Both the position numbers and the translations under genes were made by a program. Below are positions 4,017 through 22,003 of a stretch of 32,000 bases of DNA, one piece after another. How positions within the stretch are numbered: position 1 is the first letter of the stretch; every line of letters begins with the position of its first letter. The stretch spans positions 1,140,001-1,172,000 of the forward strand of contig NZ_CP074694.1 of the NCBI RefSeq assembly GCF_018398935.1, in the 5' to 3' direction. The DNA is from Telmatocola sphagniphila (lineage in GTDB: Bacteria > Planctomycetota > Planctomycetia > Gemmatales > Gemmataceae). The notes under the pieces were generated by a model. That model was not told where the DNA came from. It did not search any database and saw nothing but the letters and a program-made list of their open reading frames with translations.

Positions 4017-4067
4017 GTTTGCTCTCCTAAACTATGGCTGTCTTGGGCACAGCCGGATTCTCAGAAA

Positions 4068-5576: not shown

Positions 5577-5587
5577 TAGTTATTCCC

Positions 5588-5848
5588 TCAATCAGCCGTA
5601 GGACGACCCGGTTGAGACGGTCGACGTTGTGGTTGCCCCGGAAACGCATCGGTAGTTTCGCCGATCGGCTCATCCGGATCGAAAATTGCTCGGGCCGAGC
5701 GCGTGAAATTTTCAAATTGACCATCTTTAACGCCCCAGGCCAGGGCCATGATCATCGCGGCGGAAAACATCAGACTTGCCACGGTAACGATCAAAATCAT
5801 CAGCTTGTCGTTGGAAGTGATAACTTCCGGATCAATTGGAATGCTCAT
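5588..5848 (-). CDS. ccoS: cbb3 oxidase maturation protein CcoS/FixS-like.
   Basis: This is an 86-aa protein with a single TM segment followed by ALAWGVKDGQFENFTRSARAIFDPDEP. That matches the CcoS pattern W-x3-GQF(D/E)..........D(D/E). A strong GGAGGAGG Shine-Dalgarno (SD) sequence precedes the ATG, which lies 11 nt upstream of ccoN. Confidence 0.8.
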   Translation of the reverse strand: MSIPIDPEVITSNDKLMILIVTVASLMFSAAMIMALAWGVKDGQFENFTRSARAIFDPDEPIGETTDAFPGQPQRRPSQPGRPTAD

Positions 5849-5875
5849 CGAATCTAACCTCCTCCGATTCGAAAA

Positions 5876-6337
5876 TTACTTCTTTTCCGGCTTCGGAGCG
5901 TCCTTGGAAGAGGCTTTGGGCTCTTCCTTTTTAGCGTCTTTGGGCTCGTCTTTTTTAACTTCCTTGGGAGCAGGAGGTGTTTCGGCCTTCGGCTCGGGTT
6001 TGACAGTAGGCTTCATAGGGAACGGGAGTTTCCCGTTCTTGGAACCTTCTTCGATCATTTTCTGAACGGAGACATCTACGGGAATACGAACCGTATTGGT
6101 GGCTTTGTCGAAGTTGCCATAAGAGCTGATCATGTCCTTCTGAGCAGCCAGCAATTCTTTTAGTTTCTGTTCACCGCTGATGGTCGGAGTCGCCACGTCC
6201 ATTTTGTTGGAGTAGTAGTAGATGACAACGATCAAACCGGCAAACAGGAACAAAAGCAACAGCGTGGTCACAATTGTAATCACCGGGAAACCGGGTGAAG
6301 GAATCTCATGTTTGTTGGGAGTCGTATTGATGTCCAT
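5876..6337 (-). CDS. Hypothetical single-pass membrane protein with a Lys/Pro/Glu-rich C-terminal tail. It sits between actF and ccoS.
   Basis: It has an ATG start and one strong TM segment (FPVITIVTTLLLLFLFAGLIVVIYYY). A short globular segment follows (NTVRIPVDVSVQKMIEEG), then a 45-aa tail (KPTVKPEPKAETPPAPKEVKKDEPKDAKKEEPKASSKDAPKPEKK). The gene is co-directional within the respiratory cluster. I recognised no family. Confidence 0.6.
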   Translation of the reverse strand: MDINTTPNKHEIPSPGFPVITIVTTLLLLFLFAGLIVVIYYYSNKMDVATPTISGEQKLKELLAAQKDMISSYGNFDKATNTVRIPVDVSVQKMIEEGSKNGKLPFPMKPTVKPEPKAETPPAPKEVKKDEPKDAKKEEPKASSKDAPKPEKK

Positions 6338-6349
6338 TTCTCGGATTCT

Positions 6350-6381
6350 CGCAAAATAACCCGGCTGGCAATACCGCCGGG
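6350..6381 (-). terminator. Candidate intrinsic terminator or attenuator between actF and the downstream orf/cco genes.
   Basis: On the minus strand, CCCGGC (complement of 6376-6381) pairs with GCCGGG (complement of 6360-6365) across a 10-nt loop. TTATTTTG (complement of 6350-6359) follows directly. The element lies about 30 nt after the actF stop. Confidence 0.4.
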
Positions 6382-6411
6382 GTAAATTCGTAACACAGAC
6401 GGCGTTCCGGT

Positions 6412-7665
6412 TTATTTCGGATCGCCGAACTCGTCGTTTTCAAAATGGATCGATTCATCCAGTCGGGGATCGCCTACGGGAATCATCGGAGCCTTTTTCC
6501 AGCCGTTGAAGAGGCAGGTCATCAACAAGCCCCCGAAGAACAGCAGCGATGCGATCGTCGTCCAGTGGAATTGTATCCCGCTGATCGGATCGTCGTGAAC
6601 GGTTGGCTTCAACATTTCCGGCATGATCTGCCAGTATTGATCGTAGCAGTGGAAAAACAGAATCCAGGATGCCACAAAGGCCATAATCTTTGGATTACGC
6701 TTGTTGCCGCGGGGCAGCAGGATCAGGAACGGAACCACGAAGTAACCGAGCGGTAGTATCACCGACATGTGATACCAGGTTCCGACACGGCGGTTGCGGA
6801 AGAACTGAACTTCCTCCGGCATGTTGCCATACCACTGCAGGAAGTACTGGTCGAATGCGATATAGGTCCAGAATACAGTGAACCCGAAGGTCAGCTTGCC
6901 CATATCGTGCAGGTGTTCTCGAGTGATCGTGTTTCTCAGGTATCCCGCCGAGCGGAGACCCAAAGTGATCAGAATAATCAACGCCAGAGAACTGCGGATC
7001 CCACCGGCCCAGAAATAAACGCCGAAGATCGTGGAGAACCAGGTGTAATTCAAGCTCATGATGAGGTCGAAAGCGGTGAACGTCGCCGTCAAGCCTAGCA
7101 GAAGTATACCGGAGGGAGCCCACCATTGCATCTTCTTGGTGATGGAGACTTCTCGTGTCGAGTCCTGCTTCAGCGAATTATTTCGCATGAAATAGGAGTA
7201 ACCGATCCAGATCGCGAAGTAGATGCAGATGCGGGCAATGAAGAATCCCGGACTCAGCCAGAATCGCTTGGAGCTAACCGGAATATCAATTTCTGTTGCG
7301 TGTGCCCCCTTATAAATGGAACCCAATCCCAGAGCAATTGGCAGGAACAGCACCAGAAGAATCGGCAGAGCCCGAGTGATATTCTCGAAGCTTCGACGAA
7401 TACCGACCGACCATCCGGCGTCCGCCACGTGATGAATCATCGTCCAGAAAAGGCAGCCCAGTGTAATCGACAGGGCGTAGACGTAGCCGTGCAGATACGA
7501 AAAGAGAAACTGCTTGTGGCCTTCGGTACTATCGAGAATGAAGCCGATCGCCAGTAGTACGGCACCGGTCAAAGTCACCGCAAGCGCCTTCTGATAAAGG
7601 CCTGCGCTGACCGACTCAGGCATATTGGGAGAATCCGGCAGTGTATGTTCCGCGGTTGCGCTCAT
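6412..7665 (-). CDS. actF: Alternative complex III subunit ActF (polytopic membrane subunit).
   Basis: This is a 417-aa multi-TM protein. The motif FWTMIHHVADAGWSVGIRRSFE is typical of ActF-type quinol:cytochrome c oxidoreductase membrane subunits. Its ATG overlaps the actE TAA by 1 nt. Confidence 0.8.
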   Translation of the reverse strand: MSATAEHTLPDSPNMPESVSAGLYQKALAVTLTGAVLLAIGFILDSTEGHKQFLFSYLHGYVYALSITLGCLFWTMIHHVADAGWSVGIRRSFENITRALPILLVLFLPIALGLGSIYKGAHATEIDIPVSSKRFWLSPGFFIARICIYFAIWIGYSYFMRNNSLKQDSTREVSITKKMQWWAPSGILLLGLTATFTAFDLIMSLNYTWFSTIFGVYFWAGGIRSSLALIILITLGLRSAGYLRNTITREHLHDMGKLTFGFTVFWTYIAFDQYFLQWYGNMPEEVQFFRNRRVGTWYHMSVILPLGYFVVPFLILLPRGNKRNPKIMAFVASWILFFHCYDQYWQIMPEMLKPTVHDDPISGIQFHWTTIASLLFFGGLLMTCLFNGWKKAPMIPVGDPRLDESIHFENDEFGDPK

Positions 7666-8477
7666 TATTTAGGCACCCCCAATTGTTCGCGCTGTGAAGC
7701 CGGTACGAGGCTCTTATCGGCGATCTGCGAGTATTGCAAAGCTCGAACGTAAGAGACAATCGCCCAACGATCGATCGGCTTGGTCATGTGCCCATAGGGA
7801 GACATGGTGTTCTTTCCCATGGTGATCGTGTTGAAGATTTCGCCATCGGCCATTTCCCGCAGCCGATCCTGATGATAGCTGGCGATGCCGACCATGTTAT
7901 ATTTGCCAACGATACCCGCCGCTGTGTCTCCCTGGCCGCCATATCCGGAAAGGCCGTGGCACATCGAGCAGTTAATGGTGTATCGTTCCTTACCGCGAGC
8001 CAGTAATTTGTCCCATCCGCCCAGTTCGTCGATGGCTCTTTGCGGTATGTTTGTAATCCACTTGGGCTGCATTTCCTTGCGTTCTTTTTTCACGAGGACA
8101 GGCTTGCCGCCTTCGAGAACTGGCTTCCCGTCCGCTCCCATCTTCGGAGTCTCGTCGATCACCGTCACCTCGTGCATACCCTTGTAGCCGAAGTAGAAGT
8201 TCTCGTCTTCCTTGAGGAAGTCGGGGTTGTCGGCTTTAAGATATCCCGCATCGGCGAAGTAGTCGGCGCCGGAGTAAGCCACCGTCCCGGAAACGGGCAT
8301 GCGAGCCGAGCGTCCATCGCCGAAGAATCGGCTCTGGGACTGCGCGTAATACTTGCCCTGATACTTCATATCCCAGAACAAGTGCCGGGGACGATTAGTC
8401 GTCTTCTGTCCCCGGGCTCCGAGCATGGCCGCGATAACGGCCGCGAGTCCGAGAATAACCAGAATCATTCGCAACAT
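7665..8477 (-). CDS. actE: Alternative complex III monoheme cytochrome c subunit ActE.
   Basis: It has an N-terminal TM anchor, an FWDMKYQ...DGRSARMPVSGTVA segment and a single heme motif, NCSMCHGLSGYG. The C-terminal class-I cytochrome c fold is indicated by MSPYGH...IVSYVRALQ. Its position between actCD and actF supports the call. Confidence 0.85.
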   Translation of the reverse strand: MLRMILVILGLAAVIAAMLGARGQKTTNRPRHLFWDMKYQGKYYAQSQSRFFGDGRSARMPVSGTVAYSGADYFADAGYLKADNPDFLKEDENFYFGYKGMHEVTVIDETPKMGADGKPVLEGGKPVLVKKERKEMQPKWITNIPQRAIDELGGWDKLLARGKERYTINCSMCHGLSGYGGQGDTAAGIVGKYNMVGIASYHQDRLREMADGEIFNTITMGKNTMSPYGHMTKPIDRWAIVSYVRALQYSQIADKSLVPASQREQLGVPK

Positions 8478-8485
8478 AGTGTTTC

Positions 8486-10489
8486 TTACGCCTCCACTAC
8501 GGCAATGTTATAACCACCCAGCTCCTGGAGCTTGGCCGTGGTCTTGGCTTCGTTGTACATGGGATCCTTGGCTTCCACAGTGAGGAAGAAACCATTGTCC
8601 GTCGAGGCGGACATTCTTCGATACTGATCCAGCGGGTGGAACAGTCTCGGAAGTCCGCAAAGGCCGATGAGGCCGAGAACCGTAAAGATCCCGCTGATCA
8701 AGACTGTCAATTCAAAACAGATGGGAATAAAAGCTTCCCAGGCTCGATACAGCTTGCCCTGAACGATGGTCGGATACCACCAGGTCATCAAGCCGAATTG
8801 CATGATGATGGCGGTACTCAAACCGGTGATCGAGCCGCAAATGGTAATCCAGGGTACGGGAGACCGAGTCATACCGATCGCTCGAACCATACCGTGAACC
8901 GGATAGGGAGTATAGGCATCGAGCGACTTGTATCCGGCATCCCGGAGCGTCTCGGCCGCGTGACGAATTTCAGCAGGAGTATTAAACTCCGCCACAATCC
9001 CCCAGTTGACGCCCTTGCCACCTTCGGCTTTGAGCACGAGTTCATCCGCCGGCACTAACACTTTCGGTGTGGCCGGAGGCTGAGGACTATGATCCCCGTG
9101 AGGATGAGAGAAGGGAAGAACGCCCTTCACTTCCGACATGGCGATCATCGGCAGGAATCGGATGAACAGCAGAGTCAGCGTGAAGAACAGGCCGAAGTCT
9201 CCGAACATCTGAATCCAGTCCACATAAGAGGGATAGAAATTCCCCCAGGAACCGGGCAGCAGATCTTTGTGCAGCGATTGAACGATAATTACGAACCGTT
9301 CATACCACATACCGATGTTGACGAAGGTCACAATGATGAATGACTTCCAGGGAGTGGTACGCCAGGACTTCATCCAATACAGCTGGGGAATGAACAGGTT
9401 GCAGCTCACCATGATCCAGTAAGCCCACCAGTAGTTGCCGGTCGCACGATCAATGAAGGTCTGAATTTCGTTAACATCCCCACCGTACCAGGCAATGAAG
9501 AACTCCATTGCGTAGGCGTAACCCACCAGCGTTCCCGTAGCAAGGATGAACTTGGCCATAACGTCCATATGGCGTTCGGTAACGATGTGCCGAATGCCCG
9601 GATACATGGCTCGCACCGGGATCATGCACTGAAGCACCATCCCGAAACCCCCGAAGATCGCACCAGCCACGAAATAAGGCGGGAAGATCGTCGTGTGCCA
9701 GCCCGGTATGATCGAAGTGGCGAAGTCGAAGGACACCACCGAGTGGACTGACAGCACCAGGGGAGTCGAGAATCCGGCCAGGATCAGATAAGCAATTTCA
9801 TAGTGCCGCCAGTGGCGGGTTGACCCACGCCAGCCGAAGCTCAGTACGCCGAAAACTGTTTTGCGATACTTGTTGGTTGCACGATCGCGAAGGGTCGCGA
9901 GGTCGGGAACCAGACCGGTGTACCAGAACAAAAGAGAAATCGTGAAGTACGTCGAAACGGCGAACAAGTCCCACAGAAGAGCCGAACGAAAGTTCTGGAA
10001 GATCCAGTTGGCATTCGGCAGCGGGAACATGAACCAGGCGTACCAGAACCGCCCCACGTGAATACCAGGGTACACCCCAGCGCAAATCACGGCGAAAATC
10101 GTCATGGCTTCTGAGAAGCGGTTAATCGAGGTACGCCATTTCTGTCGGAACAGGAACAAAATGGCCGAGATCAATGTACCGGCGTGACCGATACCGATCC
10201 AGAACACGAAGTTCGTGATATCGAAGGCCCAACCTACCGGGATGTTCGATCCCCAGACTCCAACACCGGTCGAGATCAGGTAGACTGCAGACATGACGCC
10301 CGAAAGCAAAATCGTTGCGGACATCAAAAATGCAGGCCACCACCAATCAGGCTGCGCCTTTTCCGTGATGGAACTGATCGTCTGGGAAATCTTGTGGAAA
10401 TCCTGCTGGATCGGTTCCACCCACTGGATGCGAGGTAGAGTCTCACCGGAGTGCCCGCTGCCATGGGCCGTTTCGGCTGTACTGCTCAC
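8486..10489 (-). CDS. actC: Alternative complex III ActC (NrfD/PsrC-like quinol-interacting membrane subunit) fused in frame to ActD (DUF3341-type).
   Basis: A single 667-aa ORF. Residues ~1-455 are an NrfD-like polytopic domain (GHAGTLISAILFL, WHTTIFPPYFVAGAIFGG, NIGMWYERF). A His/Pro linker follows (SHPHGDHSPQPPATP, nt ~9014-9124). Residues ~493-667 match the ActD pattern (WGIVAEFNTPAEIRHAAETLRDAGYKSLDAYTPYPVHG plus 2 TM segments). The GTG start overlaps the actB TAG by 1 nt. Confidence 0.9.
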   Translation of the reverse strand: MSSTAETAHGSGHSGETLPRIQWVEPIQQDFHKISQTISSITEKAQPDWWWPAFLMSATILLSGVMSAVYLISTGVGVWGSNIPVGWAFDITNFVFWIGIGHAGTLISAILFLFRQKWRTSINRFSEAMTIFAVICAGVYPGIHVGRFWYAWFMFPLPNANWIFQNFRSALLWDLFAVSTYFTISLLFWYTGLVPDLATLRDRATNKYRKTVFGVLSFGWRGSTRHWRHYEIAYLILAGFSTPLVLSVHSVVSFDFATSIIPGWHTTIFPPYFVAGAIFGGFGMVLQCMIPVRAMYPGIRHIVTERHMDVMAKFILATGTLVGYAYAMEFFIAWYGGDVNEIQTFIDRATGNYWWAYWIMVSCNLFIPQLYWMKSWRTTPWKSFIIVTFVNIGMWYERFVIIVQSLHKDLLPGSWGNFYPSYVDWIQMFGDFGLFFTLTLLFIRFLPMIAMSEVKGVLPFSHPHGDHSPQPPATPKVLVPADELVLKAEGGKGVNWGIVAEFNTPAEIRHAAETLRDAGYKSLDAYTPYPVHGMVRAIGMTRSPVPWITICGSITGLSTAIIMQFGLMTWWYPTIVQGKLYRAWEAFIPICFELTVLISGIFTVLGLIGLCGLPRLFHPLDQYRRMSASTDNGFFLTVEAKDPMYNEAKTTAKLQELGGYNIAVVEA

Positions 10490-13400
10490 TAATGGGCCTC
10501 CTTCTTGACGACCTTACTCATATTTTCATTGAGATTTCGAAGTCTCGGCAGATAGCTGGTTCGAGGTTTCGTATTGCGGGAACCCAGCACGAGAAAATCG
10601 GCTTCTCGCTGCTTGAGCTGATACACCCGACTGTCGGTGTCGTTCACGTTACCGAATACGATCGCTTGGGAAGGACAAGCCTGCTGGCAAGCGACGTGAA
10701 TGAGACCGTCTGGACTGACGATCTTGGCTTCACCGTCGATCTGTCGGATATCGTAACCCCAGGCCATTGCATCTTCTTTGGTCTTGGGTTTGAGGTAATT
10801 CTTCTTGGCGGCTGCGACCTTGGCGCCAATCTTCCCCCGCTCGAGTCGCTGGATGCAGTAGGTGCATTTTTCCATGACGCCTCGCATACGAACGGTGACG
10901 TCGGGATTCTTCTGCATCTTCAGCGTTTCAGGAATTCCCTTAGGTGATAAACTTTCCGTATCGAGCCCTTCGTCAGAGTTGATCTGGCCAAGGAAAGTCG
11001 GGACTCGCAAGCTGTCTTGCTGCCGTTGATTGAAATCGAACCAGTTGAAGCGGCGTACCTTATAGGGGCAGTTGTTGGAGCAATACCGGGTTCCGATGCA
11101 GCGATTGAACACCTGAATGTTCAAACCTTCCGGGCTATGCACGGCCGCATTCACCGGGCAAACGGACTCGCAGGGAGCCCCTTCGCAATGCTGGCAGGCC
11201 ATCGGTTCGGTCACAACTCGAACGTCGTCGATACCGTCACCGAAGCCGCCTTCGGGTTCCATCGGGTTCGAGTTTAGTTCGACGTTCGTGAAATAGCGAT
11301 CCAATCGGATCCAATGCATTTCACGGTTGCGTTTCACTTCCCCCTTACCGACCACCGGAATGTTGTTTTCACTCTGGCAGGCAATCACGCAGGCACTGCA
11401 ACCGGTGCAGGTATTCAGGTCGATGACCATACCCCACTGATGGTGGCCGAGCAATTTTTCGGGATAGGAAACATCCAGCGAGATTCGTTTCTTTTCGTCC
11501 AGTTCACGAGCCACTTTGTAGCCGTATTGGAAGCGAAGTTTGGGATTGTCTTCGTGGTGCTCTGGATGAACACCTTCTCCCTTGCCATGACGCTCGCCGT
11601 TTTCGTGCTCTTCGCCATGGGGTTCCCCATGCTTGTGAAGCACCAGAGTTTCGTAGTCACTCAGAGTGAATTCCGAGACAACTTCGTCTCTTTCCGCTGG
11701 AATCGTGCTGTGTTCCTGAGTCGTCACCAGCTCGTAGAAACCGGTAATCTTGGTCACTTTCGCAGGTGCGAAATGGAGATCAACACTAGTGCGAATCGGA
11801 TAGACGTCAAAGCCACCCCCACCCTGCTGATGGCCGATCGATTTGCTGCCCTTGTAGCCGAGGGTCAAAGAGATCGAGTTGTCGGCATGGCCGGGAAGGA
11901 TGTAAGCGGGAACTTCGATGGACTTGGCACCGACTTCGATTTTCAGAAGCTGGCCCTGTTTGACCGAAAGCAGCTTGGAAGTCTTGTAGCTGATGATCGC
12001 CGCGTTATCCCATACCAGCTTGGTCATGGGATCGGGCAATTCCATCAACCAGCTGTTAGTGGAGTAACGACCGTCGAAAACGCTGTAGCTGGGATGGAAG
12101 GAGACTTCCATGTTGGATTCGGACACGGCCTGCGAAGGCTTCCAGCGTCCCACGGCATCCCCAAGAGTTGCTGCAATCGTCGGCTTGACGAAAGCCGGAG
12201 CACTGTCGGCCAGGAAGCCCGTGTGGAGGAAACGGCGAAACTCGATCGGTTCGGTTTTCTTGGAGCGGGCGGTGAAAGCCTTTTGAACGACTTCATAGGC
12301 TTTGTTTTGTGCAATCAGATAGCTGCTGGCTTTTTCGTAGCTGCTGAGTTGAATCAGCAACTCCAGAGCCGAGCGACCTTTATAAAGCGGCGCGATCAGG
12401 GGTTGAATCGAGCAGTAGTGCCCATCCGACGTTTCCGCATCCCCCCAACTCTCGAGGTAGTGGGCCATTGGCAGGTGCCAGGTGGCTTTCTTATCCGAAG
12501 GTTCGGTGAACAGACCAAGACGGATAACTGTCGGAACTTTAGCGAGTTGTTTGCTGAATTCCAGATCGGCAGGAGCGGTATATGCCGGATTGCTGCCGAG
12601 AATCAATAGAGTTTTGACTTCACCCTTGCCCATTGCGGAGGCTAGATCGCTGATCGAGCGATTGTTTTCCTCGGTAACCGGACGATAATCGACGGTGACA
12701 CCCACATTGCCCAAAGCTTCGTTGATGCTGGCAGCCAGAGCATGTACGAGTGGCGGTTGACGATGGCCGACTACCACCAGACTTTTGCCCTTGTATTCGA
12801 CCAGATCCTTGACGACTTCTTCGATCCAGATGCGATCGATTTGAATCGTGCTGGCTCCGGCTTTATCGACCGAAGCCTTCCAGCTCGCACTGGTTTTGGC
12901 CCCAATCTCTTTAGCGATGGCAACCGCATAGTCAGCGATGTTGGTGGCGGGTAACCGCAGGCGGTGATCCGCCATGGAGCCGGTAATGCTAAAACCGTTC
13001 TCCACAACGTAGAGTCGATTCAGTTTCTTCGAAATGTTGTGATCGTGCGAATGCAGGGCGTCGGTTCCTCGTCGGCCGGTCGCGTAGCCGAGCGAATTTG
13101 GAATAACCGAATCTTCAATTCCCAGAAAATCACAGTCGATCGACAAGATTCGCAATGCTTTTTCGAAGTGGTAGACCGGTTGCAAAGTCTGACCGAAAGC
13201 AATGTGAGTACCCTGGCGCGCCGGGCCAACCAGATCCACTGGTTCGTGAACGTACCAGGTAGCCTTGGGCATCACACTCTTTATGTGTTCCCGAACAAGT
13301 CGGATCGAGGGAGAAGGAAGGTCTTTCGCCAGAATTGCAAAGCCTTCTCCTTGCTTCTTCGCCACTTCCGAGAAGTAGTTGACAGCGAAAGCATCGAAGT

Positions 13401-13920
13401 CTTCCCAACTTTTGCTTTCCCCGTTATTCAGAACTTCACGGGATCGGTCGGGGGAGTAAATATCCAGGACAGAGGCTTGTGCAAAAGCGTCTGTTGATCC
13501 CTGGCTGGCGGGATGCTGGGGATTGCCCTCGATCTTGGTAGGCCGACCTTCATGGCTCTCGACGATGAGCGGGATGCAGCCGCCCGGCCGAGGCTGACAA
13601 GTCGCATAGAAACTGGGCAGGCCTGGAACAGGAGTATCGAGAGGACGATTATTCTCGTCCGTGGTCCGGGCGTAAGGCAGAATCTGCAAGTCGGGTCGAC
13701 GGCAGCCAGCCAACCCGGCCAAGCCCAAGCCAGCGACAGAGAGCGAAATGAACTGGCGGCGATTGAAACCACCAGTAACTTCCGCCTCGCCGGTCGATTC
13801 ATAGATATTGGCGAAACCGGGAAATTCCTGCTTGGTGAACGCTCGAAACTCCGGGGTGTCGGCCAGATCTTCCAGAGATTGCCAGTAAGGTTTCAAATTG
13901 TTGCTCTTTTCCAGACTCAT
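10489..13920 (-). CDS. actB: Alternative complex III subunit ActB: a molybdopterin-oxidoreductase-like domain fused to a 4Fe-4S ferredoxin-like domain, with a TAT signal.
   Basis: It carries a twin-arginine signal (FNRRQFISLSVAGLGLAGLAGC) and a large MopB-like N-terminal domain. The C-terminal domain has FeS cysteine clusters (CTGCSACVIACQSENNIP; CQHCEGAPCESVCP; CIGTRYCSNNCPYKVRRFN; CTYCIQR; CQQACP). I chose the ATG at 13920 because it overlaps the actA TGA (ATGA); the ORF track's start at 13938 is a TTG. Confidence 0.93.
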   Translation of the reverse strand: MSLEKSNNLKPYWQSLEDLADTPEFRAFTKQEFPGFANIYESTGEAEVTGGFNRRQFISLSVAGLGLAGLAGCRRPDLQILPYARTTDENNRPLDTPVPGLPSFYATCQPRPGGCIPLIVESHEGRPTKIEGNPQHPASQGSTDAFAQASVLDIYSPDRSREVLNNGESKSWEDFDAFAVNYFSEVAKKQGEGFAILAKDLPSPSIRLVREHIKSVMPKATWYVHEPVDLVGPARQGTHIAFGQTLQPVYHFEKALRILSIDCDFLGIEDSVIPNSLGYATGRRGTDALHSHDHNISKKLNRLYVVENGFSITGSMADHRLRLPATNIADYAVAIAKEIGAKTSASWKASVDKAGASTIQIDRIWIEEVVKDLVEYKGKSLVVVGHRQPPLVHALAASINEALGNVGVTVDYRPVTEENNRSISDLASAMGKGEVKTLLILGSNPAYTAPADLEFSKQLAKVPTVIRLGLFTEPSDKKATWHLPMAHYLESWGDAETSDGHYCSIQPLIAPLYKGRSALELLIQLSSYEKASSYLIAQNKAYEVVQKAFTARSKKTEPIEFRRFLHTGFLADSAPAFVKPTIAATLGDAVGRWKPSQAVSESNMEVSFHPSYSVFDGRYSTNSWLMELPDPMTKLVWDNAAIISYKTSKLLSVKQGQLLKIEVGAKSIEVPAYILPGHADNSISLTLGYKGSKSIGHQQGGGGFDVYPIRTSVDLHFAPAKVTKITGFYELVTTQEHSTIPAERDEVVSEFTLSDYETLVLHKHGEPHGEEHENGERHGKGEGVHPEHHEDNPKLRFQYGYKVARELDEKKRISLDVSYPEKLLGHHQWGMVIDLNTCTGCSACVIACQSENNIPVVGKGEVKRNREMHWIRLDRYFTNVELNSNPMEPEGGFGDGIDDVRVVTEPMACQHCEGAPCESVCPVNAAVHSPEGLNIQVFNRCIGTRYCSNNCPYKVRRFNWFDFNQRQQDSLRVPTFLGQINSDEGLDTESLSPKGIPETLKMQKNPDVTVRMRGVMEKCTYCIQRLERGKIGAKVAAAKKNYLKPKTKEDAMAWGYDIRQIDGEAKIVSPDGLIHVACQQACPSQAIVFGNVNDTDSRVYQLKQREADFLVLGSRNTKPRTSYLPRLRNLNENMSKVVKKEAH

Positions 13921-14570
13921 CGATGGCAACCTCCACAATTGTTCGGCGGATTGATCCCCAGCTTCTGCTTCAGATCAGCCCCTTCGCTATCAGAAGTTGA
14001 CTTGTACAGCATGTTGGTCACTTCTTCACGCGGACGCAGATGAACTTCTGCGTTGTAGTGGCAGTGCAAGCACCAGCCCATGCTCAATGCTTTTTCCTCG
14101 TAAACCACTTTCATCTCATTGATCTGCCCGTGGCAGCTGACGCAGCCGACGCCGCGAGCCACGTGAACGCTGTGGTTGAAGTAAGCGTACTCGGGAATTT
14201 TGTGAATTTTCTTCCATTCCACCGGTTTGCCCGACCGGTAACTTTCCCGAACCAGAGAAAGCAGCGGGCTCGCACCCTTGACATTTGCCTTCTCAGGATT
14301 GTGGCAGTTCATGCAGGTCTGACTGGTTGGCACCGTCGCATGTGGAGAGTTTTCCACATTCTGGTGACAGTACCGGCAGTCCATACCGAGTTGCCCGGCG
14401 TGAATCTGGTGGGAAAAGGGAACAGGTTGTTCGGGTTGATAGCCCACTCGCGTATAGCTGGGCTGAACGTAATAGTAGAAACCGAGTACGAAAAGAGTCA
14501 CCGCAAGCCCGGCCGCCAATCCGGCTTGCCGGATTGTTGTGTCGATGCTTCGCGAGAAAATGGCTGGCAA
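13917..14570 (-). CDS. actA: Alternative complex III pentaheme cytochrome c subunit ActA.
   Basis: It has an N-terminal TM anchor and five CXXCH motifs (CRYCH, CMNCH, CVSCH, CLHCH, CGGCH). The TTG start at 14570 is preceded by AGAGGAG, and there is no in-frame ATG or GTG nearby. Confidence 0.9.
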   Translation of the reverse strand: MPAIFSRSIDTTIRQAGLAAGLAVTLFVLGFYYYVQPSYTRVGYQPEQPVPFSHQIHAGQLGMDCRYCHQNVENSPHATVPTSQTCMNCHNPEKANVKGASPLLSLVRESYRSGKPVEWKKIHKIPEYAYFNHSVHVARGVGCVSCHGQINEMKVVYEEKALSMGWCLHCHYNAEVHLRPREEVTNMLYKSTSDSEGADLKQKLGINPPNNCGGCHR

Positions 14571-15662: not shown

Positions 15663-16829
15663 TTATCTTCCGGGAATTCGAAAAGGCAGAGGCTGAGTTT
15701 TGAAATCCCGGCTTCCGTTCTGATCGGTCGCACCACCAAAGGTCTGCAATTGCGTGCTCATGATTGTTTTTTTTGCAGCGTTGATGGCCGCGTCGTTATC
15801 CGAATCAAACTCCCCGAGGCAGACGTAACTGCCTTTCAGTGTGTGAAATACGAATGGCCTGAGACCTATTTTAACGCGGGGATCACTGAGCACTCGGGCG
15901 AGTTCCTCGGCCTGGAGCGCACCATTTTCCAGAAGAGACTGCTTGGGGCTACTGCCGAAGATTTTTTCCATCACGGTAGGTTGCGGATCCGCAGTCTGCA
16001 AAACCGCCCCGCCGCTAAAACCTTTAACTACCAGGGTATAGTTCTTGCGACATTCGAAGACGTTGTACTTCTGGCCGTGGTTGATTTTTTTCCAAACTTC
16101 GATTTCCTCTTTTTCCGCTTGCAGCTTTTCGGCGGCATCATCGAAGGCGACGCTCGGATTGCGAACGACGAACGACTGTAGAAAAGGATTGAGCGGTTTC
16201 ATATCGCTTGCGCCTCGAAATGGCGTTGTAGGCACTTGCGACTGGATGGAATCCATAATTGGCGCCTTCGAAGCGCTTCCCACCACGATTTTATCGCACA
16301 GATAATCGGGAGGTGTTTTGATCTTGCGAACCTCATCCAGCCAGCGTCGCGCGGATTCCATGTCTTTCCAGGGCGAGCGAGCGGGGCCCAGGAGTACCAC
16401 ATACTCCACGTCAATATGCGTTCGCTTTACAGAAATTTTGTTGCCGTCCGGTTTGACGCCGAGCTTCCGGTACTCTTCCTGGAGTCGCTCTTTTTCCGCT
16501 TTAACCCGATTCTCCTCGGCTATCTTTTCCTTGAAGTTTCGAATCTCAATATAGGGATTAAATTTCGTGCTCGACTTAATGTAGTCAGCCAGATCCTCGG
16601 CCAGTTCCAAGCCGGATTTCTGAGAATCTTTCGGATCCTTATAGGATTTCACGATAATCAAAAAATTCCCCGCGTTGGGTACGAGCGGGTATTTGGCCTG
16701 CGGGGCCTGAGGCACCCCCACCGAAGTGATGCTGGGTAGGCCCGGATCGTTTCTGGTTTGCGCGAATGTGGCATTCTTCTGGCCAAATAAACTCGCCGCG
16801 CAAATTCCCCCGATAATCCATTTTCGCAT
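15663..16829 (-). CDS. Secreted hypothetical protein with two SPOR-like (beta-alpha-beta-beta-alpha) repeats; the domain call is tentative.
   Basis: It has an ATG with AAGGAG upstream and a signal peptide (MRKWIIGGICAASLFGQKNATFAQ). Repeat 1 is FLIIVKSYKD...GLELAEDLADYIKSS...YVVLLGPARSPWKDMESARRWLDEVRKI. Repeat 2 is YTLVVKGFSG...LQAEELARVLSD...SYVCLGEFDSDNDAAINAAKKTI. Both follow the SPOR secondary-structure and hydrophobicity pattern. This was not verified by a profile search. Confidence 0.65.
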   Translation of the reverse strand: MRKWIIGGICAASLFGQKNATFAQTRNDPGLPSITSVGVPQAPQAKYPLVPNAGNFLIIVKSYKDPKDSQKSGLELAEDLADYIKSSTKFNPYIEIRNFKEKIAEENRVKAEKERLQEEYRKLGVKPDGNKISVKRTHIDVEYVVLLGPARSPWKDMESARRWLDEVRKIKTPPDYLCDKIVVGSASKAPIMDSIQSQVPTTPFRGASDMKPLNPFLQSFVVRNPSVAFDDAAEKLQAEKEEIEVWKKINHGQKYNVFECRKNYTLVVKGFSGGAVLQTADPQPTVMEKIFGSSPKQSLLENGALQAEELARVLSDPRVKIGLRPFVFHTLKGSYVCLGEFDSDNDAAINAAKKTIMSTQLQTFGGATDQNGSRDFKTQPLPFRIPGR

Positions 16830-16973: not shown

Positions 16974-18368
16974 TCAGGGTTTGGACATACCCACAAAGCT
17001 GCCATCGTTTTCCCGGGAGAGGGCCCAGAGGAATGCCCCAACATCAGGACTTTCATAAAAGAAGCCGACCGAATTTATTCGCACTTTCTGACCTTGAGTA
17101 TCGGGTCGATTCCAATTGCGATTCATAGTTTGGCGAATGTGCTTGCCCAGAATGTCGCCGAGTTGGCTCTCCGATAGCACGGCCTGCTGCTGAGTTGGGC
17201 TCAAGCCCGGGCCGGCATTGGGTAACCCGTCGGAAAGCAAATAAATGGTATCCAGTCCTTTGCTGCGCATTCGAAATGCTGCTTCGAATGGTTCGTACAT
17301 ATTGGTTTCACCGAGTGGGCGTGTTCCCTTAACTGCTTCTTCTGCTTTGGTCTCGCTTTTTCCCGCTTCGTAATCGAGCCACTCGCCTGACTGACCCAAA
17401 GGGTAGACCAAACGATTGGAGAACATGATGATCTGGTATTTCTCCAAGTTGGGTAAGGATCGCATGATCTTTGCCACGGTACCGGCGACGATCGGCCATT
17501 TATGGGGAGCCACCGTATTTTCGTCGGTGCGTTCCATACTCCCGGACATATCGACCAGAAAAACGACCTTTCGCCCCGTGAGAGCAATGCCGGCAAACTT
17601 ATTGTCTTTTTCGATCTGCATCTTGTTCAATTTGTCGGCCAGCTTGGCTTTAGTTCCCTGCAAATCGATGAGCTGTACGGCGGCTTGATCGAGCTTTTTC
17701 TTCAACTCATCCACCGATGCGGAATTGTTGGCAGTCCTCAAGCGCATTTCTTTAATCTCGGCGGCGAGCTGGGCATTCATCCGTTCCAGCTCTTCCTGTC
17801 GGGATTTGGCGTCCAAGGTGTTGCGCGTCAGACTGGCCATCTCCGCGGTCTTTTTGGCGAGATCCTTTTCGAGAGAGGTGGATTTTTTCGCGAGGGTTTC
17901 GGCTTCTTCGCGTCGACTCTTGAGGAGAGCCTCCGCATCTTTCGCAGTTTTCTCTGCCAAAGCCAGATTGCGAGCATTTTTCTCGGCTACATCCTTCACC
18001 GTCGCGAGATTTTTCGCCTGATCCTCGAACTCCTTGCGGGCTAATGCCAGATTTTTTTCGGTTTCGTCCCTTTCTTTACGAACCAGAGCGAGTTGTGCGT
18101 TGGCTTCCGTCTTCTGCTCATTGGTAAGAGCGAGATTTTTTTGCAATTCTTCGATGTCCGCGGAAAGACGCATGGCTTCCACGTTGCGATCAAACAGGTT
18201 AAGCTGCGTTTCCAGCAATTCCGCTTGAACGGTCTGGGTTTGATCCCAGGCGAGGCTGGCGTCTCGGGTTTTCAGCAACCAGAGGAGGGTGACGCATCCT
18301 AAAGCACAGCAGAATACGTCGAGCATCCACATGCTGACGAATCCGGGAGCCTTGTGTTTGATTTTCAT
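16974..18368 (-). CDS. Membrane-anchored coiled-coil vWA-domain protein with an ExbD/TolR/MotB-like Asp-containing N-terminal TM helix.
   Basis: The N-terminus is MKIKHKAPGFVSMWMLDVFCCALGCVTLLWLL. It contains Asp17 followed by Val inside the TM segment, as in the ExbD/TolR 'DV' motif. Residues ~40-255 are heptad-rich, with KNLAL-type motifs at 77, 105, 119 and 133. The vWA domain has an intact MIDAS site (VVFLVDMSGSM ... IYLLSDGLPN). The ATG overlaps the TGA of the upstream gene (ATGA at 18365-18368). Confidence 0.85.
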   Translation of the reverse strand: MKIKHKAPGFVSMWMLDVFCCALGCVTLLWLLKTRDASLAWDQTQTVQAELLETQLNLFDRNVEAMRLSADIEELQKNLALTNEQKTEANAQLALVRKERDETEKNLALARKEFEDQAKNLATVKDVAEKNARNLALAEKTAKDAEALLKSRREEAETLAKKSTSLEKDLAKKTAEMASLTRNTLDAKSRQEELERMNAQLAAEIKEMRLRTANNSASVDELKKKLDQAAVQLIDLQGTKAKLADKLNKMQIEKDNKFAGIALTGRKVVFLVDMSGSMERTDENTVAPHKWPIVAGTVAKIMRSLPNLEKYQIIMFSNRLVYPLGQSGEWLDYEAGKSETKAEEAVKGTRPLGETNMYEPFEAAFRMRSKGLDTIYLLSDGLPNAGPGLSPTQQQAVLSESQLGDILGKHIRQTMNRNWNRPDTQGQKVRINSVGFFYESPDVGAFLWALSRENDGSFVGMSKP

Positions 18369-19576
18369 GAGGCGCTCCCGATAAGAGGTATCTTTTCTCG
18401 GATGCGGTCGGTAGGGCCGGGCGGAGGAGCCTGACTGGCCAGGCGAACGAGGGCACCTGCCACGGCATCGGCCGGTAAAATACGCACTCGAGTTTGCTCG
18501 GCCAGATTTTGATGAAGCCCCACGGCCAAACCCGGCAGACGACCAGCTTCAGCCCGTAGCCAGACTTCCGAAGGCATTTCCTCGGGAAGTGTACGTTGCA
18601 ACCAATCGACCAGCGTCGAGACACAGGGATTCGAAAGCGGCTTTGCCAGCAGTGTCAGGTCTTCTTCGCCCAGAATCAGATCCTGATACCAAGTTTCTGC
18701 CCGAACGGTGACGGTGACTTTGCGGCCGAAGCGAACCCCTTCGAGCATAGGTTCGATCTGATCGTAGAGCATTTGTTCGGAATCGGCAGAATCTCTAGGA
18801 TCGCGACGACAGATCCGGACGCAGCGATCCGAAAGTCCATTGATCAATCGTTCAATCCAGAAGCGCTCGCTGTATTTAGTGAGGTGGATCGAAGCGATCA
18901 GTTTGGCTTCATTGTGATCGACCCGGACGAGGCTTGCGGTCAAGGCATGATAGTCCGCCTGCAGAATCAGAACGACCGCGTTTTCAGTCGTCTTCCGTTT
19001 GGTTTGCTTCGAAGGGTGCCAGCTTCCAGTTTCCGGTTCATCGCTTGGCAGATCGGTTTGAAAGAGGGTATGCACCCGGTCTGCAACCAGTGCCAACTCG
19101 GGTAAGTAAAACGGATTGACTTCAATTTGATTTTTCGCGAACACCGATTGCAGCATTCGCGTCGACGCTTCCGAAAGATAGCTGGGTAGGGCCCAAAGAC
19201 CGGGCCGATTTCCCTGCAATCTTTGCTTGAAATCTATTACCCACACACTTAAGGCCGCTTCCGGATTAAGACGATGCCAGTCGCTCCGCCATTCGATCTT
19301 CTGCCCCAATTCCGCGAGTAAGTTCAGGCACATCAGATGCGGATTTTTTTTGCAAGTTTTCAGCGCGTTGCGACCGAATGTGATCCGTCGATTTCCCAGA
19401 CCCAACGCTAAAGGTAGACTCGGGTTTTGCTCCTCGAGAAAAGGGGTTTCCAGTTTTTCCCCTTTAATCCGACCGACCAGCAATCGACTGCCGGTCAAAT
19501 CGTAGCCATGCGGATTGTCCGTTCCGCCGGATAATTTCTCCGCACCATTCCGTCGACCCCAGTTGAATAACGCCAT
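18365..19576 (-). CDS. Hsp70 nucleotide-binding-domain-like (ASKHA/actin-fold) protein with degenerate ATP-binding motifs and no substrate-binding domain.
   Basis: By-eye colinear matches to the DnaK NBD are as follows. HGYDLTGSRLLVG matches IGIDLGTTNSCVA, and LWALPSYLSEASTRM matches AVITVPAYFNDAQRQ. NQIEVNPFYLPELALVA matches AGLEVKRIINEPTAAAL, and ERFWIERLINGL matches EDFDSRLINYL. VWLRAEAGRLPGL...ILPADAVAGALVRLA matches VILVGGQTRMP...VNPDEAVAIGAAVQG. I chose the ATG at 19576, because the track's start at 19726 overlaps the upstream gene. Confidence 0.75.
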   Translation of the reverse strand: MALFNWGRRNGAEKLSGGTDNPHGYDLTGSRLLVGRIKGEKLETPFLEEQNPSLPLALGLGNRRITFGRNALKTCKKNPHLMCLNLLAELGQKIEWRSDWHRLNPEAALSVWVIDFKQRLQGNRPGLWALPSYLSEASTRMLQSVFAKNQIEVNPFYLPELALVADRVHTLFQTDLPSDEPETGSWHPSKQTKRKTTENAVVLILQADYHALTASLVRVDHNEAKLIASIHLTKYSERFWIERLINGLSDRCVRICRRDPRDSADSEQMLYDQIEPMLEGVRFGRKVTVTVRAETWYQDLILGEEDLTLLAKPLSNPCVSTLVDWLQRTLPEEMPSEVWLRAEAGRLPGLAVGLHQNLAEQTRVRILPADAVAGALVRLASQAPPPGPTDRIREKIPLIGSAS

Positions 19577-19647
19577 GCTGGACTTCCGTGATGGAGTGAT
19601 CAGTTCAAATCGAATCGCTAACTTCCATAGGACATATCGTCTGCAAA

Positions 19648-20454
19648 TTACTCGACGCTCTCCGCGAGTTCGGGTTGCGGATCGTAAAGTCGCAATAACA
19701 GATGTTCTTGACAGTACTGCTGGCAATCGATCAAAAGTAACTCCTCCGCTCGCTGGACGACGTGAATGATGTACATGAGCACAACGCTCAGCGCCAGTGC
19801 CACAAAGGTACAGTCAAAGGCAATTCCCAGCTGATCAGTCACCTGTTTGATGAAATCGGGGTCGCGCTGGTTGCCTGCTTTACTCATTCCGCCGGCCAAG
19901 CCACGTACGGTTCCCAGGAAACCGATGGCCGGGATGGCCCAACTCAGATAGGACAGAATTCCCATGCTGGAAATCATGCGATTCTGTTCGACTTCGGTTT
20001 GAGTCCTTACCACCTCACCCACATCGGTGGCTTTTCGGCTAATTGAAAACTTGCTCAACCCCAGTTGAATCATCTTGGCAAGAATAAAAGGCTTTCCTCG
20101 AGTTATGGAATCGATGCGGCGCGAGAGCGGCCGGCCATCTTCGGGAAGCACTCTTACACCTTCCTCGGTGGGGAGCAGACCGAGAGAAAATGCCTGTCGT
20201 TGACGGAGGCATTCCTGGTAGCGCTGCAGGAGTAGCAGACCGGACCAGACGAAGCAGAGGTAGCAAAGTATTTGTTCTGGCCCCAGGAGCAACCTGGCCA
20301 CGCGTTCCTTGTTCCACTTGGCCCAATAGGCCGCCGTGCTTTCGGCGGGCTGGAAGTACTGCCAAAGTGGGATCGTTATGCCGCCTACAATGAGAATGGA
20401 TAAAAGAAACCACAGCCACTCTCTGTGGGGGCGTCGGGACTGCTTGACACTCAT
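19648..20454 (-). CDS. MotA/TolQ/ExbB-family proton-channel-like membrane protein.
   Basis: It has 4 predicted TM segments with a large loop between TM2 and TM3. The C-terminal signature SWAIPAIGFLGTVRGL...LGIAFDCTFVALALSVVLMY parallels TolQ/ExbB (PxxGLxGTVxG ... AExLxxTxxGL). I chose the ATG at 20454; the track's start at 20496 is a TTG. Confidence 0.8.
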   Translation of the reverse strand: MSVKQSRRPHREWLWFLLSILIVGGITIPLWQYFQPAESTAAYWAKWNKERVARLLLGPEQILCYLCFVWSGLLLLQRYQECLRQRQAFSLGLLPTEEGVRVLPEDGRPLSRRIDSITRGKPFILAKMIQLGLSKFSISRKATDVGEVVRTQTEVEQNRMISSMGILSYLSWAIPAIGFLGTVRGLAGGMSKAGNQRDPDFIKQVTDQLGIAFDCTFVALALSVVLMYIIHVVQRAEELLLIDCQQYCQEHLLLRLYDPQPELAESVE

Positions 20455-20737
20455 GAGGTCTAACTTCCTGTAAGCGACTACCTGCTTTGAAGGCAATAAT
20501 ACTTACGGTCTAATGACTCGTTGACCGTTATTCGTTTCGATCGGGTTCATATTTTGAAATCTCTACCATTGTCACCGAGCGGTCAAGTAAGTTCAAGCAT
20601 TCAATAGAACGAAATTGCATTTCCCGAGAAACGAAATGCTCCGCTTTCCGGCTCCTACCGATAGAGCTAGTCTGAATATTAGTTTAGAGTAGCATAACGA
20701 GAACTCTACCCTGCTTCACTCGTCGGAAAGACTTAAC

Positions 20738-22003
20738 ATGAAGCCATCTCTCCTGGTTTGTCTGCTCCTGCTACACGGAGCTTCCTCAGCCGCGCAAACT
20801 CCCCGATTCGAGATGCAGGAAATTACTCGAGATCTCTCGATCGGTTATGCCGTAATTGCCGCGGATATCAACGGCGACGGTAAACCGGATCTGGTGGTGG
20901 TCGACAAGCATCGCGTGATCTGGTTTGAAAACCCGACTTGGAAGATGCACACGATACTCACCGGCAAAACTCGGCCGGACAACGTCTGTATCGCCGCCTG
21001 GGATGTCGATGGGGATGGTAAAATCGATTTGATTCTCGGAGCCGATTGGGCTCCCTTCAATACGAAAAGTGGCGGGACTTTGCACTGGCTAAAACAGCCC
21101 AAAAATCTGAATCAAGAGTGGGAAATGTTCCCCATTTGCGAAGAGCCTACTGTTCATCGGGTGAAGGTGATACCCAATTTGTATCCCGGCCACAAACCTG
21201 GTATCGTGCTCGCACCTTTGATGGGCCGCGACTCCAGTCGGGAAGCAAACTGGATGGATGGCCGGCCAGTGAGATTATTATCTTTTCCAATTCCGAAAGA
21301 TCCGCAAAAAGGGCCCTGGAAAGCGGATGTGATCTCCGAAGAATTACACGTTGTTCACAATTTCGCGTTTGAGGAGGTTGCTCCGAACTCGCTGCGGATT
21401 GCCACCGCGAGCTATGAAGGAGTGAGTCTATTCACTCGCACCACTAAAGATGGATCTTGGGTCAAGCGAAATTTCAATCCCGGTAATCAAGCCAATCTCA
21501 AAAGTAATCGGGGCTCTAGCGAAATCGCCCTCTTTCTATTAAAAGGCGGCGACGGTGCGAATAGGGACGGCCGCGGCAAAGCGATAATCGCTACCATTGA
21601 GCCCTGGCATGGCAATCAAGTGGTCGTGTATCCGCCGACAGCGTCCTCCGCGACTCAGATTGAGAACTCCACGAAAAATCGACTCATTTTAGATGATCAT
21701 CTGCGCTGGGGGCATGCCGTGAAATTCGGTCATCTTCTAGGCGCGGATTCGCCGTTTCTTGTCGCAGGAGTTCGAGATAATCCGAACAAAGAGGACAAAT
21801 TTTCCGAGAAATGTGGCGTGAGAATTTATCAGCCTGAGGATGCGGCGGCTACGAAGTGGAGACGGACAATTCTCGATGAAGGCGGGATCGCGGTGGAAGA
21901 TTTGATTGTGGCCGACCTCGATGGCGATGGTCGGCCGGAAATCATCGCAGTGGGCCGAGCCACCAAGAATATGCGGATCTATTGGAATAAGACCGGAAAA
22001 TAA
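20738..22003 (+). CDS. Secreted FG-GAP/VCBS-repeat (beta-propeller) protein.
   Basis: It has a signal peptide (MKPSLLVCLLLLHGASSAAQ). It also has repeated Ca-binding-loop motifs: DINGDGKPDLVVVD, WDVDGDGKIDLILG and ADLDGDGRPEIIAVG. Confidence 0.85.
   Translation: MKPSLLVCLLLLHGASSAAQTPRFEMQEITRDLSIGYAVIAADINGDGKPDLVVVDKHRVIWFENPTWKMHTILTGKTRPDNVCIAAWDVDGDGKIDLILGADWAPFNTKSGGTLHWLKQPKNLNQEWEMFPICEEPTVHRVKVIPNLYPGHKPGIVLAPLMGRDSSREANWMDGRPVRLLSFPIPKDPQKGPWKADVISEELHVVHNFAFEEVAPNSLRIATASYEGVSLFTRTTKDGSWVKRNFNPGNQANLKSNRGSSEIALFLLKGGDGANRDGRGKAIIATIEPWHGNQVVVYPPTASSATQIENSTKNRLILDDHLRWGHAVKFGHLLGADSPFLVAGVRDNPNKEDKFSEKCGVRIYQPEDAAATKWRRTILDEGGIAVEDLIVADLDGDGRPEIIAVGRATKNMRIYWNKTGK

Follow-up and report, generated by a model that had tools for sequence, protein, structure and literature searches.

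A conserved three-gene module of Gemmataceae encoding a TolQ/ExbB-like channel subunit, an Hsp70-like protein and a stalked von Willebrand factor A protein: a candidate proton-driven envelope machine

The planctomycete Telmatocola sphagniphila (Gemmataceae, Planctomycetota) carries three co-directional minus-strand genes, in the order A-B-C, which fill positions 16974-20454 of the 32,000-nucleotide stretch of contig NZ_CP074694.1 that we analysed (hereafter the window). A encodes a remote relative of the MotA, TolQ and ExbB channel subunits, B a soluble protein with the fold of the Hsp70 nucleotide-binding domain (NBD), and C a membrane-anchored protein in which a long coiled coil leads to a head of the von Willebrand factor A (vWA) type. 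We suggest, with a probability that we put at roughly 0.55, that the trio is an envelope machine of the MotA/ExbB/TolQ '5:2' kind, in which a proton motor would drive the vWA stalk and the Hsp70-like protein would act as its partner.

Gene organisation and conservation

The components of the module, in the order of transcription, are as follows.

19648-20454, minus strand: gene A, 268 amino acids, TolQ/ExbB-like channel subunit
19577-19647, minus strand: A-B intergenic spacer, 71 nt
18365-19576, minus strand: gene B, 403 amino acids, soluble Hsp70-NBD fold with degenerate nucleotide-binding motifs
16974-18368, minus strand: gene C, 464 amino acids, bitopic, candidate axle ('B-type') subunit

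The ATGA at 18365-18368 is the stop codon of B overlapping the start codon of C. The compact layout described in a first-pass annotation, which had been made by a model from the DNA and a list of its open reading frames (ORFs), is thus borne out by the ORF coordinates, both for the 71-nt gap and for the overlap. Translation of A is taken to start at the ATG equivalent to position 20454, as in 72/72 full-length orthologues, rather than at the upstream TTG at 20496, which gives the longest ORF. Protein B is 100% identical to KIH39_04945. A scan for promoters and terminators gave nothing exceeding the shuffle expectation. Among the window ORFs scanned there was no TonB, TolA, ExbD, MotB or Zorya partner, in line with the earlier remark that TonB/TolA-like and Zorya partners are missing here.

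Scanning one genome per species, we found 115 relatives of B, from which 80 loci were kept. Nearly all of them belong to the Gemmataceae (Zavarzinella, Gemmata, Fimbriiglobus, Limnoglobus and Frigoriglobus). The gene immediately upstream of B is A at every evaluable locus (71/71), and C follows downstream of B at 60 of the 67 that could be evaluated; one locus has a 2-kb insertion between B and C. The genes flanking the trio differ from locus to locus, and a single vWA gene is present at every locus examined. Identities to the Telmatocola proteins are 54-76% for A, 29-37% for B and 34-50% for C, the values falling from Zavarzinella through Fimbriiglobus and Limnoglobus to Gemmata. The association of the three genes is far beyond chance, and the synteny that had been put forward as a test of the module is present, between unrelated flanks. 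When A or C served as the query, the best 120 matches listed were all orthologues.

Three divergent trios extend the comparison. The identities of A, B and C to the Telmatocola proteins are 53%, 32% and 38% in the trio that we label L085, 46%, 29% and 39% in L087, and 41%, 24% and 33% in L086; the hhalign probability for B is 100% in L085 and 99.6% in L086. In both L085 (gene at 4466-5947) and L087 (4469-5938), B has at its C-terminus an FHA domain, which binds phosphothreonine, and L086 has a separate FHA gene (8315-8848) 1.4 kb downstream of the trio.

Trios of the Gemmataceae type, at the usual identities, are also found on contigs of metagenome-assembled genomes with odd taxonomic labels: L011, L013, L020 and L071 (labelled Alcaligenaceae), L081 (Bacteroidales), L051 (Isosphaera) and L070 (Singulisphaera). 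For those with implausible labels, mis-binning or mislabelling is the likely explanation rather than horizontal transfer.

The channel subunit

Two features of A are discussed below.

19909-19911, minus strand: codon of Thr182, within the motif GFLGT(182)VRGL of the third transmembrane (TM) helix, invariant in two orthologue alignments (A3 and A4)
19678-19716, minus strand: cytoplasmic C-terminal motif YCQEHLLLRLYDP, near-invariant across 73 orthologues

A matches PF01618 (MotA_ExbB) with 42.9 bits (cut-off 22.9) over residues 125-236, as do all of its orthologues that were scanned (44/44), and the two motifs AIPAIGFLGTVRGL and AFDCTFVALALSV quoted by the first-pass annotation as the signature of this family are present. 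The protein has four hydrophobic helices, at approximately residues 13-33, 59-85, 165-195 and 206-233, and a helical cytoplasmic domain at 88-163. Its AlphaFold (AF2) model has a predicted local distance difference test score (pLDDT) of 80, and the best 50 matches to this fold in the PDB, found with Foldseek, are all A subunits of 5:2 motors: ExbB/TolQ come first, then MotA, ZorA and PomA, with template modelling scores of at most 0.69. Pfam score, orthologues and fold matches agree in placing A in the MotA/TolQ/ExbB family, as had been claimed. The 'MotA-like' topology that went with that claim holds for the number of TM helices, four, but not for the fold, which is nearer to ExbB/TolQ than to MotA despite the extra N-terminal TM helix.

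An hhalign comparison pairs residues 173-196 of A with residues 136-159 of TolQ and T182 with T145. The counterparts of Thr182 would be Thr145 in TolQ and Thr148 in ExbB, both of which line the pore. TolQ Thr145 is one of the two essential threonines of the pore (T148 and T181 in ExbB, T145 and T178 in TolQ) (PMC12905483). A has a second invariant threonine, T216, in the sequence AFDCTF, and it is plausible that this residue is the equivalent of TolQ Thr178. The C-terminal tail YCQEHLLLRLYDP is a candidate docking site for B.

Anchor, stalk and head of protein C

C consists of four parts.

18330-18368, minus strand: basic cytoplasmic tail of 13 residues, preceding the TM helix
18273-18329, minus strand: TM helix, residues 14-32, WMLDVFCCALGCVTLLWLL, containing Asp17-Val18 (Asp17 codon 18318-18320)
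17595-18257, minus strand: coiled-coil stalk, residues 38-258, approximately 30-33 nm if continuous, with KNLAL-type 14-residue repeats
16977-17594, minus strand: vWA head, residues 259-464, with the DxSxS of the metal-ion-dependent adhesion site (MIDAS) at 17538-17552 and the invariant C-terminus NDGSFVGMSKP

The aspartate of the TM helix is invariant in 184 members of the C family and falls at residue 16-19 in nearly all C orthologues. Equally invariant are the cysteines three and four residues after it, the leucine at +6 and the glycine at +7, and the cysteine at +8 is nearly so. The charges on the two sides of the helix (3/0 before it versus 2/3 after it) favour a topology with the N-terminus inside. 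Searches of Pfam and NCBIfam with the whole of C gave no match to ExbD/TolR, MotB_plug or OmpA. Since there is no such profile match and the periplasmic part is made of coiled coil and vWA domain, C lies outside the ExbD/TolR (PF02472) and MotB families, and the earlier statement that it has neither an ExbD periplasmic fold nor an OmpA domain stands. A match of the TM helix and coiled coil to NF006543 ('peptidoglycan-binding protein' PRK09039) has E = 0.12 and is too weak for use.

The stalk (residues 38-258) has no proline and only one glycine, and its hydrophobicity has periods of 3.5 and approximately 13.8 residues; the power at 3.5 residues was reached by 5 of 1000 shuffled sequences. It matches the SMC and DUF7491 coiled-coil families and is built in part of 14-residue repeats, KNLALxxxExDxxA, whose number differs among orthologues; Tandem Repeats Finder detected no repeat at the DNA level beneath them. 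The TM aspartate and the MIDAS are spaced 173 to 413 residues apart (median 276); in some relatives the stalk is about twice as long. This spacing is quantised: of 213 sequences, 173 have a value of 0 or 4 modulo 7, where 2/7 would be expected, as do 67 of the 96 representatives at 50% identity and 39 of the 70 distinct values (binomial p = 2e-6), in statistics that ignore phylogenetic relatedness. Stalk lengths therefore change mostly by heptads or hendecads, as would be expected for a continuous coiled coil that keeps its angular register from the TM helix to the head.

The C-terminal domain of C matches VWA_2 with 34.3 bits (cut-off 27), and the MIDAS residues D273, S275, S277, T355 and D380 are invariant across 34 orthologues. 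The combination of a TM helix bearing Asp17-Val18, a coiled coil and a vWA domain with an intact MIDAS was recognised in the first-pass annotation and is confirmed by the invariant aspartate, the heptad period and the VWA_2 match. The head belongs to a small and distinct subfamily: a search of 1.84 billion protein representatives gave 630 matches at E <= 1e-3 and 168 at E <= 1e-30, the 168 being 50%-identity clusters. A profile of C compared with PDB sequences gave generic coiled-coil matches and a weak match to the vWA domain of ITIH4 only. A plasmid tblastn search with the head produced a single match, to a Shinella sigma/anti-sigma YfbK-like vWA protein, which is unrelated.

Heads of the C type also occur in other architectures. 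They are found behind a coiled coil and TM helix in two Ser/Thr kinases and one nSTAND1 NTPase, and with a coiled coil behind a signal peptide in one caspase-domain protein; the head relatives P0400, P0504, P0421 and P0433 are 49-54% identical over the head, the terminal GSFVGMSKP included. Because these heads lie behind TM helices or a signal peptide and C itself is predicted to have its N-terminus inside, the head of C is assigned to the periplasm. Another relative, P0488, has the same coiled coil and head behind a TM helix that lacks the aspartate, and it has no MotA/ExbB neighbour.

The Hsp70-like partner

One feature of B stands out by its conservation.

18773-18829, minus strand: DRCVRxCRRDPRDSADAEQ, residues 250-268, at the start of Hsp70 subdomain IIB, the strongest conservation in B (invariant columns of alignment A1)

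Neither a hydrophobic segment nor a signal peptide is present in B. The protein matches nothing in Pfam, NCBIfam or PADLOC, and PF00012 is not found at E <= 1; one B orthologue matches PF00012 weakly. With 40 homologues as its basis, the AF2 model reaches a high confidence (pLDDT 89.7, predicted template modelling score 0.88), and its best 50 PDB matches in Foldseek are all NBDs of Hsp70, DnaK, BiP or Hsp110, with E-values of 9e-20 to 9e-17, template modelling scores of 0.65-0.74 and 12-15% identity. A profile of the B family gives weak matches to DnaK NBDs that are collinear over three stretches. The model and its structural matches support the earlier description of the middle gene as an Hsp70-NBD-like protein that lacks a signal peptide.

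The profile alignments place DADEHA (LQADYHA in the Telmatocola protein) opposite the phosphate-2 loop DLGGGT and WLTHEAGRLPGL opposite the adenosine loop LVGGSTRMP, and the glycine-rich ATP loops have thus been lost from the B family. By our reading of the alignment, the positions of the catalytic Lys70 and Glu171 are apparently not kept. A substrate-binding domain is lacking, as the chain stops at the end of the NBD. It is a reasonable inference that B is a pseudo-ATPase, as the first-pass annotation had proposed, the degenerate ATP motifs being what speaks for it. The motif at residues 250-268 is kept as RRDPRDS or RRDPRRS in the divergent trios L085-L087.

The Gemmataceae orthologues of B share a disordered N-terminal motif, M-x-W-x-x-W-S-R-K (pLDDT < 50; near window position 19576), which is missing from B of L085 and L087, the proteins with an FHA domain. 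This motif may serve as a peptide that binds the membrane or a partner.

Cysteines are unusually well conserved in all three proteins: A has C64, C215 and C248, B has C252 and C256 (a CxxxC motif), and protein C has C20, C21 and C25 within its TM helix. L086, the most divergent trio, has lost those of both the A tail and the B motif. A metal clasp between A and B is one possible explanation. We do not claim such a clasp between Cys248/His251 of A and Cys252/Cys256 of B, as Zavarzinella has Asn in place of His251 and the sample is very small; the idea that the LLLRL tail of A mimics the interdomain linker of Hsp70 was considered and is likewise not claimed on so small a sample.

Model of the assembly and its alternatives

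We propose that five copies of A form a proton-conducting ring in the cytoplasmic membrane. C is the sole other membrane protein of the module and has an invariant aspartate in its TM helix, and there is no ExbD, TolR or MotB gene in the module or among the scanned ORFs of the window; it is therefore the only candidate for the axle. Two copies of C would take the place of ExbD/TolR/MotB at the centre of the ring, giving an A5C2 complex in which the Asp17 helices sit in the pore beside the ring of Thr182 residues, and protons would pass through the A pentamer and past Asp17 of the C dimer. The two chains would then extend across the wide planctomycetal periplasm as a parallel, register-preserving coiled coil of approximately 220 residues (about 30 nm) and end in two MIDAS vWA heads, which would bind a periplasmic or outer-membrane ligand via a metal ion. 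Proton flow would cause the ring and the axle to turn relative to one another and so place torque or tension on the ligand of the head. A rigid shaft would need such heptad/hendecad spacing if its angular register is of importance. B, a catalytically degenerate subunit, would bind the cytoplasmic face of the motor, at the C-terminal tail of A or the basic 16-residue N-terminus of C, and would serve as a regulator, a clutch or an assembly adaptor. The FHA domain of B in sister lineages would tie the motor to Ser/Thr-kinase signalling. The genes for the kinase-vWA proteins do not adjoin any trio, so a circuit from kinase to FHA domain is guilt by association.

A number of results weigh against this model. 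The Foldseek E-values for A are weak (2e-3 or worse), and a profile of A orthologues, when compared with PDB sequences at E <= 10, gave nothing but chance matches to asparaginases, with MotA, ExbB and TolQ all absent; A must therefore be regarded as a remote member of the PF01618 family, whose placement relies on Pfam and fold comparison. The equivalence of T216 with TolQ Thr178 was not recovered in the hhalign alignment. The N-terminal 45 residues of C, when compared with Pfam and NCBIfam at E <= 10, match no ExbD or MotB profile, so that 'ExbD-like', the term used for C in the first-pass annotation, is a functional description and not a statement of family membership; what remains of it is the aspartate, the topology and the gene context. 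C is not found within approximately 5 kb downstream of B at 7 of the 67 evaluable loci, and the neglect of relatedness in the spacing statistics must be kept in mind. The presence of the head on kinase, STAND and caspase proteins is as compatible with sensing as with mechanical work.

This last point leads to the main rival of the motor, a ligand-gated proton channel or trans-envelope sensor. Binding by the head would shift the Asp-bearing TM helices through the coiled coil, opening a proton leak or altering the cytoplasmic face, and B, which has an FHA domain in some lineages, would read out the change and pass the signal to Ser/Thr phospho-signalling. That Ser/Thr kinases, a STAND NTPase and a caspase-domain protein, all of them signalling architectures, use the same head outside the cytoplasm argues for such a role, as does the occurrence of FHA on B in L085 and L087 and in a separate gene near the L086 trio, and the loss of the ATPase motifs of B would suit a scaffold. 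We nevertheless think it unlikely, as every characterised complex of a PF01618 protein with an Asp-bearing TM helix turns ion flow into mechanical work (PMC9389320, PMC12905483), the quantised stalk suits the transmission of torque or tension at least equally well, and no receiver or output gene is conserved beside the trio. It is harder still to accept that C is not the axle at all, that A pairs in Ton/Tol fashion with an ExbD/TolR encoded elsewhere, and that C is a vWA adhesin or tether and B a degenerate chaperone-like protein. Planctomycetes have many ExbB/ExbD paralogues, the TM helix of C matches no ExbD/MotB profile, and C is missing beside A-B at seven loci; yet the buried aspartate and its flanking residues are invariant in 184 sequences while the rest of C falls to as little as 33% identity, the Asp-less relative P0488 has no MotA neighbour, the gene order is kept over deep divergence between unrelated flanks, and the published TolQ/vWA analogue described below likewise has no tolR. 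We see very little prospect that the trio is a Zorya-type anti-phage or conflict system, with a MotA-like channel that senses perturbation of the envelope and triggers an effector. A does match PADLOC ZorA weakly (E = 3e-4, 18 bits) and nSTAND1 and caspase proteins, typical members of conflict systems, also bear the head, but there is no ZorB peptidoglycan-binding domain, long ZorA tail, ZorC/D or nuclease among the window ORFs scanned, and no other PADLOC component was matched. Moreover, the trio looks vertically inherited, occurs as a single copy per locus among housekeeping genes, and is present in essentially every Gemmataceae genome matched, unlike the patchy distribution of defence islands.

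Comparison with known systems

The closest published counterpart of the proposed motor, and an independent precedent in its favour, is itself a prediction. On the basis of gene neighbourhood and AlphaFold 3 (AF3) modelling, a family of TM-tethered vWA proteins has been described whose genes are tightly linked to tolQ homologues (PMC12204202, Mol Biol Evol 2025;42:msaf138). These TPH-vWA proteins, for which Idiomarina loihiensis is the reference species, have no tolR or exbD gene nearby; their TolR/ExbD-like 'transpore helix' has a conserved aspartate, was modelled in a TolQ-like pentamer beside the ring of threonines, and was proposed to rotate in the pentamer, driven by the proton motive force, and to apply force at the outer membrane (PMC12204202). 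They are mostly encoded by heterologous pairs of vWA genes, have disordered regions before the head and come mainly from Proteobacteria and Verrucomicrobia, and the paper makes no mention of Hsp70, DnaK, coiled coils or Gemmata (PMC12204202). The trio shares with them a tolQ/exbB homologue adjoining a vWA protein with an aspartate in its TM helix, and the lack of tolR/exbD. It differs in having a single vWA gene with a heptad coiled coil of 170-410 residues in place of paired genes and a disordered linker, and is set apart from the published description by the obligatory Hsp70-NBD gene between A and C and by its distribution in the Gemmatales. The 630 relatives of the C head at E <= 1e-3 among 1.84 billion representatives suggest that it is at most distantly related to the TPH-vWA proteins. 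Because that paper describes it, the core idea of a motor joined to a vWA protein is already in print as a prediction, and the word 'undescribed' in the first-pass annotation has to be narrowed: it does not hold for the class of motor made of TolQ and an Asp-TM-vWA protein, but we found no paper on the three-part version. Literature searches for a trio of ExbB/MotA, vWA and Hsp70, or for Gemmata ExbB with von Willebrand, gave nothing beyond PMC12204202. What is new here is the single vWA gene, the tunable rigid stalk and the obligatory Hsp70-like partner, sometimes fused to FHA.

ExbB-ExbD-TonB and TolQ-TolR-TolA resemble the trio in their PF01618 subunit, which has the nearest fold and the GxxGTVxG motif of the pore threonine, in an axle-type partner with a short basic N-terminal tail and a TM aspartate, and in the predicted transmission of force into the periplasm. 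The differences are the extra N-terminal TM helix that gives A four, the lack of an ExbD/TolR fold in C, the absence of a separate TonB/TolA with an SHLS helix, the long element being fused to the axle instead, and the added Hsp70-like subunit. MotAB/PomAB and ZorAB have a four-TM A subunit and an Asp-TM B subunit with an anchoring or target-binding domain at its periplasmic end, and in these respects are like the trio, which in contrast has no plug, OmpA-like domain, flagellar genes, ZorA tail or ZorC/D; the fold matches of A to MotA, ZorA and PomA are also weaker than those to ExbB/TolQ.

A different kind of parallel is offered by PilM-PilN and GspL, of the platforms that assemble type IV pili and type II secretion systems, in which a cytoplasmic protein of the actin/Hsp70 superfamily, with no demonstrated ATPase role, is encoded just upstream of a bitopic partner that has a short conserved cytoplasmic N-terminal tail, one TM helix and a periplasmic coiled coil. 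By functional analogy, B might hold C in the same manner. Unlike these systems, B matches Hsp70 NBDs and not PilM/FtsA, there is no PilO/P/Q or secretion ATPase, and C pairs with a putative proton channel.

Neighbouring genes

One gene beside the trio has some claim to be an accessory.

20738-22003, plus strand: secreted FG-GAP beta-propeller gene, divergent from A, with FG-GAP_3 and AUDH beta-propeller matches; possible accessory, not core

An orthologue of this gene (45-59% identity) lies divergently upstream of A at 33 of 62 evaluable loci, in several genera, at a distance of 138-420 bp. An FG-GAP propeller beside a MIDAS vWA head recalls the pairing of integrin alpha and beta chains; it could be a partner of the head or merely retained synteny.

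Directly downstream of C (15663-16829, minus strand) is the gene for a 388-aa protein with a signal-like sequence at its N-terminus; it has no Pfam match and no counterpart across 83 related loci. Further on (2602-14570, minus strand) lies a respiratory cluster encoding a multihaem cytochrome c (13917-14570), an ActB-like Fe-S protein of 1149 aa, a fused NrfD/ActD (alternative complex III), c-type cytochromes and subunit I of a haem-copper oxidase. This cluster has no relation to the trio and shows no synteny with it at other loci.

Implications

Ion-driven 5:2 motors power flagella, TonB-dependent uptake, the Tol-Pal system, gliding and type IX secretion, and Zorya defence, and each newly found output of such a motor has revealed new envelope biology. 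If our model is correct, the whole force-transmitting element would sit on the axle, as a coiled coil of tunable length that ends in a metal-dependent adhesion domain. We know of no described stator family with a cytoplasmic subunit of the Hsp70 fold, and the FHA domain on B in some lineages would be a link to phosphothreonine signalling.

The periplasm of Gemmata-type bacteria is unusual in being enlarged, and their cells multiply by an FtsZ-independent budding; both traits lack a mechanistic explanation, and the trio is a concrete and genetically testable candidate for a part in either. At its most ambitious, and this we offer as a speculation that is probably wrong in at least some of its parts, the trio would be a lineage-wide planctomycetal machine in which a proton rotor turns or reels a rigid stalk of at least 30 nm with integrin-like MIDAS heads across the enlarged periplasm, a pseudo-Hsp70 clutch, FHA-bearing in some lineages, gates this activity from the cytoplasm in response to the Ser/Thr kinases that bear the same head, and the whole closes into a mechano-sensory circuit. 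It could drive an envelope process peculiar to these cells, such as the uptake of macromolecules, the tethering or remodelling of the outer membrane, or FtsZ-less budding, and the FG-GAP propeller might be the partner of its head. In any event, the trio would be a first opportunity for experiments on the 'vWA axle' class predicted in 2025.

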